Source: Eledone cirrhosa (lineage: Eukaryota). From it: DNA of 64,000 bases. Shown here piece after piece: positions 8,291 through 50,989 of the stretch. The notes below the pieces were generated by a model. The model saw nothing but the letters and a program-made list of their open reading frames with translations. It was not told the DNA's origin and ran no database searches. Numbering within the stretch: position 1 is the first letter of the stretch; each line of letters begins with the position of its first letter. The stretch spans positions 104,656,001 to 104,720,000 of the forward strand of contig OZ024742.1 in NCBI GenBank assembly GCA_964016885.1, read 5' to 3'. A program made the translations under genes and the position numbers.

Positions 8291-8435
8291 TTACAATACG
8301 AAAAGTGAGGTTTTTTTTACAAAATGAAAAATAACCGAGGTGTCCTACACGAGTGAAAGTATAAAGAAAAAGAGATGAAATCGAAAATGCAACTGGAGTC
8401 TTATTTTTAAAAAAAATATATATATTTATTTGGTT

Positions 8436-8473
8436 CCTTTACCGGTTTCGCAGTTCTTCTGCTTTTCAAAAGG
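8436..8473 (-). ncRNA. minimal type-I hammerhead ribozyme (U3-A8 variant)
   Basis: CCTT-TTGAAAA-GCAG aagaa CTGC-GAAAC CG GTA-AAGG; second copy at 24738-24773 (+). Confidence 0.75.
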
Positions 8474-8518
8474 TGAGTTGAGATGGAGGGTCTGTGGTTT
8501 TTCTCACATATATATATA

Positions 8519-8905
8519 TCATCATCATCATCAATTTACGTCCGCTTTTCCTTGCTTGCAAGGGTGGGACGGTAACTGACCCTGGCTTGATTTCTACAGC
8601 TGGATGCCCTTCCTAACACCAACCTCATTTACAGTGAGTGCTGGGTGCTTTTTTGCCGTGGTACCTACATGTCCACTTTACAGTGTGGGCTAGGTGCTTT
8701 TTTGCCGTGGCACCTCCACGACCACTCTACAGTGGAATGATATGAACCCCAGTCCCTATCATCTCATTTCTACAGCTGAGTAAATTGGAGCAATGTGAAA
8801 TAAAGTGTCTTGCTCAAGGAAACAACACATCACCCGGTCTGAGAATTGAACTCACAATCTTTCGATTGCAAGCCCAATGCTCTAACCACTAAGCCATGTG
8901 CCTCC
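8519..8905 (-). mobile_element. SINE family A copy
   Basis: Reverse complement of 7584-7936 with one extra RTE-UTR sub-repeat. Confidence 0.9.
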
Positions 8906-8957
8906 ATAATATATATATATATTTATAAATCAGAATTGATGTAGTAAAAACCTGTTA

Positions 8958-9114
8958 GACCATTACTCACTGGAGTACTCAACACTTGGGGTAGTAGAGT
9001 GTGGTAATATGATGGAGTCGGGACCCCAACGGCTGAGCTCCTGCCGTTCCAACAGTTCGGTACTAGCTGTTAAAATGGCAGGAGCTCAGCCGTCGGGGTC
9101 CCGATTCGTTCATA
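8958..9114. mobile_element. hammerhead-half fold-back element related to 40477-40640
   Basis: Imperfect hairpin 9011-9114 (GGGACCCCAACGGCTGAGCTCCTGCCGTT / AATGGCAGGAGCTCAGCCGTCGGGGTCCC) preceded by GAGTACTCAACACTTGGGGTAGTAGAGT, homologous to the reverse complement of 40600-40626. Confidence 0.75.
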
Positions 9115-9177
9115 TATATATATATATATATATATATATATATACACACACCCACATGCATATATATATATACACAT

Positions 9178-9666
9178 ACAAAATTTAGTATAGAGATGTA
9201 TTGCATACCTTACTTACTGTGGTTACCCCCAATTGAACCTGGGATAACATATATATCATCATCATCATCATCATCTTCGTTTAATGTCCATCTTCCATGC
9301 TAGCATGGGTTAGATGGGAGTTGTCCCACTTGAGGCAAGGCTGGTCGAGTGACCGTGTCTCGCCCATATAGGACTATCTGGTAGGTTTTCTACGGCTGGA
9401 TGCCCTTCCTAACACCAACCACATATGTTAGGAAGGGCATCCAGCCGTAGAAAACCTGCCAGATAGTCCTATATGGGCGAGACACGGTCACCCGACTAGC
9501 CTTGCCTCAAGTGGGACAACTCCCATCTAACCCATGCTAGCATGGAAGATGGACATTAAACGAAGATGATGATGATGATGATGATGATATACATGTTATT
9601 CCCAGGTTCAATTGGTGGTAACCACAGTAAGTAAGGTATGCAATACATTTCTATACTAAATTTTGT
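9178..9666. repeat. inverted duplication, ~240-bp arms, 11-bp spacer
   Basis: 9178-9414 is the near-exact reverse complement of 9426-9666; each arm holds an RTE 3' tail plus ~75 bp of non-RTE flank. Confidence 0.92.
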
Positions 9667-9674
9667 TTTATATA

Positions 9675-9833
9675 TATAAGGTAAAAATGATGATGGTGAT
9701 GAATATATATGTGCAGGCACGTGTGTGTGTGTGTATATATATATATACATGATGATGATGATGATATATATATATACACCCACACGTGTCTGCACATATA
9801 TATATTCATCACCATCATCATTTTTACCTTATA
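9675..9833. repeat. inverted repeat, ~70-bp arms around (GAT)n
   Basis: TATAAGGTAAAAATGATGATGGTGATGAATATATATGTGCAG... versus ...CTGCACATATATATTCATCACCATCATCATTTTTACCTTATA. Confidence 0.85.
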
Positions 9834-9874
9834 CCACACCCCTTAACTTATCCCCATTTAATGTTTCAAATAAT

Positions 9875-10059
9875 TGTTTCTACTTTAGGCACAAGGCCAG
9901 CAATTACCCAGTGCATTACTGGTACTTTATTTTATCGACTCCGTAAGGATGAAAGGCAAAGTTAACCTCGGCGGGATTTGAACTCAGACTGTAAAGGGAC
10001 ATAACTATGCTAGAAAGCATGGCGTCCAACCCTCTACCGATACTGCCAATTCACCGCCC
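9875..10059 (-). mobile_element. SINE family B with 17-bp TSD
   Basis: B box GTTCAAATCC, core GCCTTTCATCCTTACGGAGTCGATAAAATAAAGTACCAG; TSD TTAATGTTTCAAATAAT at 9858-9874 and 10060-10076. Confidence 0.92.
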
Positions 10060-47901: not shown

Positions 47902-48079
47902 TATTTCTACTTTTGGCACAAGGCCATCAATTATCCCAGTGCATTACTGGTACTTTATTTTATCGACCCCGTAAGGATGAAAGGCAAAGTCAACCTCGGC
48001 GGGATTTGAACTCAGATCGTAAAGGGGCGTAACTATGCTGGAAAGCATTGCGTCCGACCCTCTACTGATACTGCCAATC
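47902..48079 (-). mobile_element. SINE B inserted in the GIY-YIG domain, 18-bp TSD
   Basis: TSD CGAGACCTTCAAGATAAT at 47884-47901 and 48080-48097; removal joins ORF 46876.. to ..48295 in frame (EHWRDLQDN|KESSVLYQH). Confidence 0.95.
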
Positions 48080-48499
48080 CGAGACCTTCAAGATAATAAA
48101 GAATCATCTGTACTCTACCAACATGCTAAGATAGAACACAAGGGTAAATTAGAGAACATAGAAATAAAAATAGAATCTACACACAGAAAAGATGCAATGT
48201 TTAGACAAATTACAGAGGCAATAAACATAAAAGAATTACAACCAAAATTAAATAGAAAATATGAGTGGAACAGCAACATCACAACTTACAATTAAGGACA
48301 AAATGAAAACACACACACACATAGAACAAACAACCAACCAATAACATGTAAATAAATAAACAAATAGATAAATGAACACAAACACACACAGACACCCGGA
48401 TGTGGCGCATGCGCAAACTGAGCACACAACACACACACAGAAACAAAATGGCGTAGGACAGAAGAAAGGAAAAGCACAGAAACAAAGAAAGGAATCCCC

Positions 48500-48544
48500 A
48501 GTCACTGAAGAGGTCACAGAGTGTGTGACGAAAGGACTATGACT
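48500..48544 (+). ncRNA. minimal type-I hammerhead ribozyme in PLE 3' UTR/pLTR
   Basis: AGTCA-CTGAAGA-g-GTCACA gagtg TGTGAC-GAAAG GA CTA-TGACT. Confidence 0.82.
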
Positions 48545-48870
48545 ATATATAAACAACTATCTGGTTGTGGAACCAACCAACCAACCAGAAATTTATAAAT
48601 TTATAAATATATAATAAATTGAAGTGAAAGCAACTGGTGCGTGTGTTTCTTATTGGCAGCATGACCCTCCCAAAGTATAACAATATCGGTTTCAACACAC
48701 GATTTCAGATAAAGAATCTTGCTAAACAAATTCAGAAACGAAATATATATATATATATATATATATATATATATATATATATATATATATATATATATAC
48801 ACACAAGTATACAAGCAATTTATAAACGTAAACATGTAAGTATGTTTTTGAAACGGTGCCAGAGTTTGAA

Positions 48871-49094
48871 ATTAGAAATTAGAAATTATAAGCTTTCACC
48901 GTATTTTAGACTAAAGAAATTTCTAGCCTGATAGTGGGGTTTATAACCCTCGGAGAAATGGAAAAAGATGAGTGTTGCCGTACATGGCAACACTCATCTT
49001 TTTCCATTTCTCCGAGGGTTATAAACCCCACTATCAGGCTAGAAATTTCTTTAGTCTAAAATACGGTGAAAGCTTATAATTTCTAATTTCTAAT
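48871..49094. repeat. palindrome, 109-bp arms with no mismatch seen, 6-nt spacer
   Basis: 48871-48979 is the reverse complement of 48986-49094; contains GGTGAAAGCTTA near the outer end. Confidence 0.93.
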
Positions 49095-49233
49095 ATATAT
49101 ATATATATATATATATATATATATATATATATATATGTATATATATAGTAATAATAATAAATTTGAAGACTAAAATCCAAAGAGGGCTCGATAAGGATAA
49201 ATATATATCAAATATATAAGAACCGTAGAGCAA

Positions 49234-49348
49234 ATATTTATTAAAATAACAGATTAAGTTTAAGCAAAGAATCGCTGCTTTCACCCTCCTGTTAAGGGTG
49301 AAAGCAGCGATTCTTTGCTTAAACTTAATCTGTTATTTTAATAAATAT
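49234..49348. repeat. palindrome, 54-bp arms, hammerhead 3' half
   Basis: Arms match 38667-38720; centre TCCTGTTAAGGGT corresponds to stem II of the 38690-38740 motif. Confidence 0.9.
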
Positions 49349-49796
49349 GTATATATATATATATATATGTATATATATATATATATGTATATATATATAT
49401 ATATATATATATATATATATATATATATATATATATATATATATATATCAATTGTATTTCTCAATAAAAAAGGTGTATGTACATTAGTTCAGAGCATCGA
49501 TTATATGAGTTTAAATGATATATAAAAATGGTATATATCAATTGAGAAACAATTAGTATTTTGTACATATATATATATATACACAGAGCAAATAATATGT
49601 AAGTAAATATACTTACTTCAAGATGGTAACAAGTATATAAATAAATAAATAAATAAATATGTATATAAATATATTACACACATATATATATATATATACA
49701 TATATATATATATATATATCATCATCGATATAATCATATATATATATAGTGAAAATAACTGAAGTCAGATTTGCAGCTTGTGTAGAAACTTTATTT

Positions 49797-49885
49797 GCAG
49801 ATTACAATTGTTTCAATATCAATCAGCTTGGTTGTGATCAAGGCAATCAAAGCCCGACTCTTTTTCAACATCTCCTCAGATATGT
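49797..49885 (-). ncRNA. type-I hammerhead with long stem II loop, within inverted repeat 49747-49989
   Basis: ACATAT-CTGAGGA-GATGTTGA..(~42 nt)..TTGATATT-GAAAC AATT GTA-ATCTGC, then AATAAA. The inverted partner (49916-49989) has the perfect stem I strand ATATGT. Confidence 0.72.
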
Positions 49886-50258
49886 GAGTTTACATGCGTG
49901 ATCCACATCTAAACTGATATTGAAACAATTGTAATATGTAAATAAAGTTTCTATACAAGCTGCTAATTTGAATTCAATTATTTTCACTACATTGATACTC
50001 TGCAACATACAGCCACTTTAAACCTTGAGCATAACCCAATGAGAGATGGACCACATAACAGCATTGAGTGCTTTGAACAACATGCTGCAAGTAACCACAA
50101 GTTACTTACTTAAATAACCTATATATATATATAATTAATTCGAGTATGCTACCAGAGCCCTGAGAAACCAACACCAAATTCCATCCCGAGCATATCAATG
50201 AACCGAATCATCAGAAGTAAGCTTTATTTCATCTTTATGTTTTTCTGTTCAAATTATA

Positions 50259-50317
50259 GCTGTCTGATGAGGTCATAGCTGTTGCATAATGGTTATCACC
50301 AAAATATATATAACAGC
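50259..50317 (+). ncRNA. type-I hammerhead-like motif (GAAA decayed to AAAA)
   Basis: GCTGT-CTGATGA-GGTcATAGC..GTTATcACC-AAAA TATATA TA-ACAGC, then AATAAA and (TA)n. Confidence 0.65.
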
Positions 50318-50989
50318 AGTTATGAATAAACAAAGTTAATTTTAACCTGTTGACTTATACTTATTGTTTGTATATTATATATATATATATTTGTATGTAT
50401 GTGCATGTTCAGAGTGAGAGATGGTTAAAGCAACTTATGACATTTCTTTATGGTCTACATAAACAATACCTCCTGCAATGTAACATTTCAATGAAAATGA
50501 GCAATATATAATATGCTTTTTCTTCACAAAACATGTATTTAGCACTATATTATCCAATGTGACTCTTTTCCTAAAAAGAGTGGGATTTTATTTGAGGGAG
50601 AGTTGTCTGATATTTCTAATAGATTGAGCAGCCATATAGAAGTTCCCTGATAGGGTTCATACAAACTTTCACCTTGGCGTTAATGGTGATACTAATGTGT
50701 TACAAATTTCAATGTATTGGTTTGCTTTCTGCTAAAATGGTTTTTTGTATTTCTGTTAGTAATTGGTTTTACGATCCCATTTTTATTCATTTATATATAT
50801 TTTACGCATGACTATCCGAATTCTGGAAAAGGAGGTTGGGGAAGAATACAGAAACGAAACATTTGACAACTGTCAGGTCTGAAGCATGCCAAGTAACTGG
50901 ACACAGTGATGTATATGTTTGTAGATATATAGAAATATTTCTATATGTCTACTGACACACACACTTCTCTATGTAAGTCTACAGACATA

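Follow-up and report, generated by a model that had tools for sequence, protein, structure and literature searches.

The stretch analysed here, 64,000 nucleotides of Eledone cirrhosa DNA (GenBank assembly GCA_964016885.1, contig OZ024742.1, positions 104,656,001 to 104,720,000 of the forward strand; referred to below as the window), carries seven sites with the layout of a type-I hammerhead ribozyme, all of which had been picked out in an earlier sequence-only reading of this DNA and all of which we recovered at the same places. One repeat (family A) accounts for both 8436 and 24738, and the seven sites therefore fall into six repeat families, named A to F, in agreement with the earlier estimate of about six repeats. 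The seven sites are very probably hammerhead-type motifs in the 3' tails of these families, those of C and D being tails of Penelope-like elements (PLEs) and the other four likely products of the same machinery; the motifs would cut the element RNA, probably as dimers, and most of the copies in the window appear decayed.

Seven motif sites in six repeat families

The blocks follow one another in the type-I order at all seven sites (helix I strand, box 1, helix II hairpin, GAAA, helix III, UH, helix I strand). A permuted hammerhead order was also considered and is ruled out by this plain order at seven of seven sites. The CUGANGA box is exact in the window copies of B, C, E and F (4/7), and reads UUGAAAA in both copies of A (A1 and A2) and CAGAAGA in D, these deviating boxes being states of the families and not private mutations. 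GAAA is present in six of the seven copies (the exception is E, with AAAA) and UH in all of them. Position 10.1/11.1 is a G-C pair in three families (A, C and E) and G.U in F; B has C.C there (its window copy C.U) and D has U.U. A base added between positions 9 and 10.1 is found in family C alone. The helix III loops are palindromic in A (CCGG), E (UAUAUA) and F (CAAUUG), three of four positions pair in B, just 15.2-16.2 pair in helix III of C, and D forms a monomeric hairpin. The description of all seven as complete or near-complete was therefore too generous, since one site is complete and canonical (C), one is complete in a published variant form (A1) and five are near-complete (Table 1). 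The run of AATAAA and then (TA)n that had been reported after several motifs can be read after the motifs of A1, B, D, E and F. Family C has it at a distance of about 95 nt downstream, and A2 reads AATTAA instead.

Table 1. Coordinates of the hammerhead-type motifs and of the repeats that carry them (ORF, open reading frame).
Feature	Position	Strand	Description
Family A motif, copy 1 (A1)	8436-8473	-	Box 1 UUGAAAA (U3 with A8); helix II of 4 bp from G10.1-C11.1; GAAA; palindromic CCGG; UA; helix I of 4 bp
Family A unit around A1	8302-8509	-	Solo arm with long 3' end; TA repeats on the flanks; 96.6% identity to genomic copy L014
Family A motif, copy 2 (A2)	24738-24773	+	Core as in A1; helix I of just 3 bp
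Family A unit around A2	24695-24809	+	3' side truncated
Family B motif	16224-16273	+	CUGAUGA and GAAA intact; C.U mismatch at 10.1/11.1; helix III decayed, 15.2/16.2 unpaired; helix I of 6 bp
Family B element	16109-16347	+	About 240 bp, without ORF; long 3' end; microsatellites on either side
Family C minimal hammerhead	48500-48544	+	CUGAAGA; extra G before a 6-bp helix II from G10.1-C11.1; GAAA; GGAC; UA; helix I of 5 bp
Family C PLE, 5'-truncated	46806-48799	+	ORF remnant 46846-48295; long 3' end
Inverted family C tail piece	46641-46805	-	Adjoins the truncated C element at its 5' end; 99.4% identity
Foreign repeat inside the C element	47902-48079		About 178 bp, inserted in the endonuclease region
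Family D motif	38690-38740	-	Box 1 CAGAAGA (A4); U.U at 10.1/11.1, then a 3-bp helix II; GAAA; hairpin helix III; UU; helix I of 5 bp
Family D copy, 5'-truncated	38664-39375	-	3' end of the short kind, in (TA)n; matches full copy L181 at 94.6% identity
Family D scraps in inverted order	49149-49230 and 49287-49393	- and +	The second holds part of the D motif; the mir-548-like palindrome of the Rfam scan
Family E motif	50259-50317	+	CUGAUGA; long helix II from G10.1-C11.1; AAAA replacing GAAA (G12A, at a CpG); palindromic UAUAUA; UA; helix I of 5 bp
Family E element	50157-50388	+	
Family F motif	49798-49884	-	CUGAGGA; 57-nt helix II domain (8 bp at the base, G.U at 10.1/11.1); GAAA; palindromic CAAUUG; UA; one helix I mismatch in the window copy
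Family F element and partial inverted arm	49655-49916 and 49916-49992	- and +	

Tails of four families (the end of C, the D scraps, a fold-back F and E) lie within 1.6 kb of TA-rich DNA between 48799 and 50400, which looks like a landing pad that was struck repeatedly. The family A unit around A1 is directly adjoined by a tRNA-derived short interspersed nuclear element (SINE) ending in a (TGA)n tail (8525-8912, minus strand); further SINE copies lie at 38255-38312 (minus) and 7593-7650 (plus), the three scoring 31.1, 30.5 and 28.1 bits, respectively, with the Rfam tRNA model (cut-off 29).

The families in the genome, their coding members and their ends

We searched the 3.0-Gb genome to which the window belongs, and the candidate counts are to be read as lower bounds: at least 1078 for family A, 2242 for B (85-90% identity), 89 for C (97-100% identity), 2307 for E and 1066 for F. 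A pattern search with the 33-nt motif of D, allowing up to two mismatches, returned 36,219 matches against 0 for the control, which makes D the most abundant of the six. The core letters are almost invariant in the 29-30 copies fetched for each family, a count that is circular for D as its copies were chosen by the motif itself. All 29 copies of family A have the U3-A8 state, and at position 12 of family E, which is a CpG site, 13 of 29 copies have G and 16 have A, these copies having been ranked by how closely they resemble the window copy, itself an A. The 159 copies of D that deviate at position 4 alone show G, T and C in a mixture, which identifies A4 as the state of the family. A descriptor written after the published features of minimal hammerheads, with three classes (canonical core, U3-A8 core and one core mismatch), was passed by 26/29 copies of C, 8/29 of F, 5/29 of E, 5/29 of B, 1/29 of A and 0/30 of D, the low rate of A being due to a majority helix I of 3 bp. 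By its core letters, each motif is the majority state of its family. With the same descriptor, the flanks of the fetched loci (L002-L180; 405,500 bases, biased to TA-rich and repeat-rich DNA, from which the targeted copies had been cut out) gave 46 canonical-core matches compared to 0 in each of 10 shuffles. These matches represent at least 10 additional families of minimal hammerhead, which differ in helices I and II and whose helix III loops are mostly palindromic; the genome is plainly full of hammerhead-like motifs.

Two of the families are coding. The ORF remnant of the C element can be read as having a YVDD motif and a CX4CxxC followed by GIY-YIG, and in a full copy of this ORF (691 amino acids) the GIY-YIG match covers profile positions 3-74 of 78 (72/78) at 21.7 bits, the Pfam cut-off being 22.6. 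A PDB sequence search with the C ORF returned I-TevI alone (E 0.72). The family C motif is shown to lie in the tail, a flanking repeat, of a 5'-truncated PLE. The foreign repeat inserted in the endonuclease region of the window copy must be among the most abundant repeats of the genome, given that contig depth over it was 20-40 times that of neighbouring bins in three runs; its translation also matched many of the fetched loci.

In full copies of family D the motif stands on both sides of an ORF of 645-713 amino acids, as in copy L181, where the motifs at 1023 and 4282 (3259 nt apart) enclose a 645-residue ORF, and the ORF of the next unit follows the motif after about 170-200 nt. The D ORF has 912 homologues at E ≤ 0.001; Pfam gave no relevant family in this ORF or in 19 of its homologues, and a PDB sequence search with it gave nothing. 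A structure model built from 20 sequences (predicted local distance difference test score, pLDDT, 87.5) has telomerase reverse transcriptase (TERT) as its top fold match (E 1.2e-8), followed by the reverse transcriptases of retrons, LINE-1 and group II introns, and on this model family D encodes a predicted telomerase-like reverse transcriptase. A C-terminal VVY...YIG...R...H motif appears in a profile alignment at a probability of just 13%, and this motif of the D clade aligns weakly with the GIY-YIG region of C. The language-model neighbour clusters of both ORFs carry RVT_1, GIY-YIG and HTH_animal. Taken together, families C and D are shown to have ORFs of the predicted reverse transcriptase plus GIY-YIG type, and the C-terminal position of the endonuclease implies that these elements are not Naiads. 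The D endonuclease domain has 48,844 candidate places in the genome, the best 150 of which are 92-100% identical, with 149 of the 150 free of stops within the match; a search with this domain for diverged relatives returned D itself only. With frames open over up to 713 amino acids, family D is very young and possibly still active.

In each of the six families the 3' end is set in (TA)n and the extent of 5' truncation varies from copy to copy, with the motif 10-300 nt upstream of that 3' end. Inverted arms are a trait of all the families, adjacent arms on opposite strands being found at 24 (A), 4 (B), 4 (C), 6 (E) and 4 (F) of about 40 scored places each. In A, B, C and D there are two alternative 3' ends of broadly similar frequency, one short and one extended by about 55-100 nt: long and short ends numbered 15 and 6 in A (8 unclear, 29 copies), 12 and 13 in B (4 unclear, 29 copies), 12 and 15 in C (27 copies) and 12 and 14 in D (2 unclear, 28 copies). 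In tandem copies of D the 3' extension is the start of the next unit. A bias to (TA)n, tails and inverted copies have been reported for PLEs in the text available of PMC8557442, and 3' tails have been described as a unique signature of PLEs, the explanation given being that reverse transcription can start at two internal sites (PMC11167929, in part). The PLE traits found here comprise partial tandems, inverted 5'-truncated copies, an optional 3' extension and microsatellite targets. Families A and B have the two-ended signature in common with the coding families without any sequence similarity to them, and this is the main reason to tie the ORF-less A and B to the Penelope machinery, which likely copied E and F as well. 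The proposal of a mixed population of solitary PLE tails or non-autonomous derivatives is thus supported by C and D as PLE tails, by the (TA)n ends, 5' truncation and inverted arms, and by the two 3' ends of A to D.

The mirror-image arms of family A, found at 24 of 40 places, together with insertion in TA, are also what would be seen if A and similar fold-back copies were TA-targeting miniature DNA transposons whose likeness to a hammerhead is incidental. We consider this highly improbable, since single arms are common and single units have no terminal inverted repeats, and since the outer ends vary between two lengths, just as those of the PLE families do. Moreover, the junction of the two arms is always at one and the same internal position, where a lone A or T stays unpaired (e.g., L006, L014-L019), as if the end of the complementary DNA had folded back and primed itself, and the longer forms of A continue upstream of this junction, where the arms start.

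Chance resemblance, the role of the motifs and the question of retrozymes

Several results weigh against reading the seven sites as hammerhead-type motifs in Penelope-type tails. Within the window the descriptor matched one canonical core (C), one U3-A8 core (A1) and one core with a single mismatch (E), and in 150 dinucleotide shuffles of the window the one-mismatch class had a mean of 1.07 matches, with 100 shuffles reaching the observed one. The corresponding means were 0.12 for the U3-A8 core (18 shuffles reaching one) and 0.033 for the canonical core (4 shuffles), and the reversed window gave no match in any of the three classes. The comparison with shuffled sequence that the sequence-only reading had proposed therefore gives a weak enrichment in the window and none for the one-mismatch class; these means and counts make the density in the window, on its own, weak evidence, and the near-complete motifs taken singly are no better than chance. 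An initial, stricter descriptor had found nothing exact in the window because it disallowed bulges and a long helix II. A scan with hammerhead models, another check that had been proposed, went against the earlier claim, as no Rfam hammerhead model reached its gathering score in the whole window and none was returned at E ≤ 10 on stretches of 150-620 nt around C, B, E and F; at E ≤ 10 the scan of the whole window was flooded by (TA)n matches to microRNA models. Fold energies were unremarkable (z -0.25 to -2.35), and the minimum-energy fold was the hammerhead for A1 and E only, that of A1 yielding helices I and II. Within families the substitutions look random, and inspection of family B by eye revealed no compensatory pairs. 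On the coding side, the GIY-YIG region of the C ORF remnant reaches 21.3 bits, below the Pfam cut-off of 22.6, Pfam found no RVT_1 in the C or D ORFs, and no autonomous or coding partner of A, B, E or F was found around the copies examined. The sequence shared upstream of four long A copies (about 500 nt) has no ORF, and one copy each of E and F adjoins the remnant of a PLE ORF with no second tail after the remnant, which provides no link. Mutational studies indicate that an A4 core, as in D, and a mismatched position 10.1/11.1, as in B and D, may abolish catalysis.

On a rival reading, some of the near-complete motifs, D above all and also A, might be look-alikes that arose by chance in the tails and were amplified with the repeat, without derivation from a hammerhead. 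Besides the chance density of one-mismatch motifs (one in the window against 1.07 expected), this would account for the failure of all 30 copies of D and all but one of 29 copies of A with the descriptor, for a minimum-energy fold of D that is not the hammerhead (z -0.25) and for the absence of a motif downstream of three degenerate remnants of D-like PLE ORFs. Against it, D matches the fixed core in 10 of 11 letters, has kept each of the three helices (5, 3 and 5 bp) and carries its motif at the usual position of a PLE hammerhead, on either side of the ORF. Family A has G10.1-C11.1 and the palindromic CCGG, and its two core changes are exactly the paired replacement of C3 and G8 by U3 and A8 known from PLEs of Schistosoma (PMC4209133, in the text available). 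We regard chance resemblance as an unlikely explanation.

If the D motif does derive from a hammerhead, the fixed core CAGAAGA (A4 with U.U), present in at least 36,000 tails, might be a new and catalytically competent variant of the core, or the fold might have been retained for a job other than cutting, for example to mark a place for the element's reverse transcriptase close to where it starts at its two sites. We regard this as rather doubtful. The fixed A4 with U.U of D, as well as the C.C of B at 10.1/11.1, may be unusual, and our literature search found nothing useful on a U4A hammerhead core.

Under the preferred reading, in which the motifs are hammerhead-type and sit in tails copied by the Penelope machinery, the GIY-YIG endonuclease would nick TA repeats, and reverse transcription from either of two internal start sites on an RNA longer than one unit would generate the ends with and without the extension. 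The element RNA would be cut by the motif, probably as dimers; upon cofolding, two copies were joined via their palindromic loops in families A and E. The copies in the window would be dead remnants of this process. Inserted copies all keep both sides of the predicted cut site, suggesting that the RNAs that were copied were uncut or had been religated there, in agreement with the published lack of effect of hammerhead mutants on Penelope insertion in vitro (PMC11167929), and the ribozyme would then be at most an accessory device of RNA processing that is not needed for insertion.

A further possibility is that the ORF-less families are non-LTR (long terminal repeat) retrozymes of the metazoan kind, which form short head-to-tail arrays; their RNA is cleaved by the hammerhead and made circular before being converted back to DNA. 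This picture, as it is drawn in parts of PMC7229834 and of a preprint (bioRxiv 10.64898/2026.07.22.740005), suits an invertebrate whose short non-coding repeats contain type-I hammerheads. However, among the roughly 40 best-scoring places per family there were inverted arms and no short head-to-tail arrays, and the unit ends do not match the predicted cut sites. The only direct array of F consists of a 1558-bp unit without an intact motif, repeated 2.9 times at 99.9% identity (locus L204, C5:82489500-82499400, positions 3854-8353), which holds a decayed piece of F and is a recent segmental duplication. Retrozymes are, in our view, an improbable explanation of these families.

Known hammerhead elements, neighbouring features and significance

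According to the available text of Cervera and de la Pena (2014; PMC4209133), minimal hammerheads are numerous and varied in the flanking repeats of PLEs in metazoan genomes, include a U3-A8 variant and may act as dimers, and from a cephalopod genome both Hammerhead_1 matches and Penelope elements have been reported (PMC6962438, in part). The motifs described here resemble these minimal hammerheads in their type-I order, short helix I and long helix II, in the extra base of C and in the G10.1-C11.1 pair of A, C and E. Helix III of A, E and F is reduced to a palindromic loop, which fits the dimer model of that study, and a place in PLE flanking repeats, as shown for C and D, is likewise shared, with many families per genome and mostly solitary copies. 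They differ in the C.C of B and U.U of D at 10.1/11.1, in the A4 and the real hairpin helix III of D, and in the 57-nt helix II domain of F. Family A is especially close to the hammerheads of the Schistosoma PLE Cercyon (same source), in which C3 and G8 are also exchanged together for U and A and the tertiary pair is kept; unlike Cercyon, it occurs in another host and with another sequence, its majority helix I has 3 bp and no PLE ORF is tied to it.

The Neptune, Nematis and Naiad clades of PLEs, as far as the text available of Craig et al. (2021; PMC8557442) describes them, share with our families the insertion in (TA)n, the occurrence of partial tandems and of inverted copies that are truncated at the 5' end, and extensions that may or may not be present at the ends, and with the C ORF the CX4CxxC before GIY-YIG, although the extensions measure about 55-100 nt here versus 30-40 bp in those clades. 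The Poseidon PLE of Anolis, studied in vitro (PMC11167929, in part), also has two alternative 3' ends and insertions that retain the uncut hammerhead site; its motif overlaps the start of the ORF, whereas the motifs described here precede the ORF of the next unit by about 170-200 nt (D) or belong to tails that have no ORF. The metazoan non-LTR retrozymes (Cervera and de la Pena, 2020, PMC7229834; 10.64898/2026.07.22.740005; both in part) are similar in being non-coding repeats with type-I hammerheads and supposed derivatives of PLEs, as the preprint proposes; unlike them, our six families gave no head-to-tail arrays among the places scored.

Other features of the window concern the claim that A1 is sense to a minus-strand host gene and lies downstream of its C1 exons. 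What remains of this claim is a single C1_1 match at 23568-23726 (minus strand; 20.8 bits against a cut-off of 26.5), a short open frame that is possibly an exon of such a gene. Stronger C1/PHD-like matches sit in the ORF of a long interspersed nuclear element (LINE). LINE copies, which have no relation to the hammerhead families, lie at 43170-46136 (plus), 3872-5079, 57584-60129 and 60309-61313 (all minus), with a PHD/C1-like zinc finger, RVT_1 (111 bits) and an endonuclease of the apurinic type.

As far as their sequence tells, the motifs of the window are ordinary and mostly decayed hammerhead tails of the Penelope type, a kind of element that is already well known, and the current picture of Penelope hammerheads is unchanged by these findings. 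The analysis annotates in detail a landing pad of TA microsatellites that is crowded with tails of the Penelope type, and illustrates that standard Rfam scans miss all seven motifs. That hammerhead mutants leave Penelope insertion in vitro unaffected has been described in the text available of PMC11167929, and the finding that the most successful family here (D) has a non-canonical core agrees with such published hints that cleavage is unneeded for the proliferation of Penelope elements.

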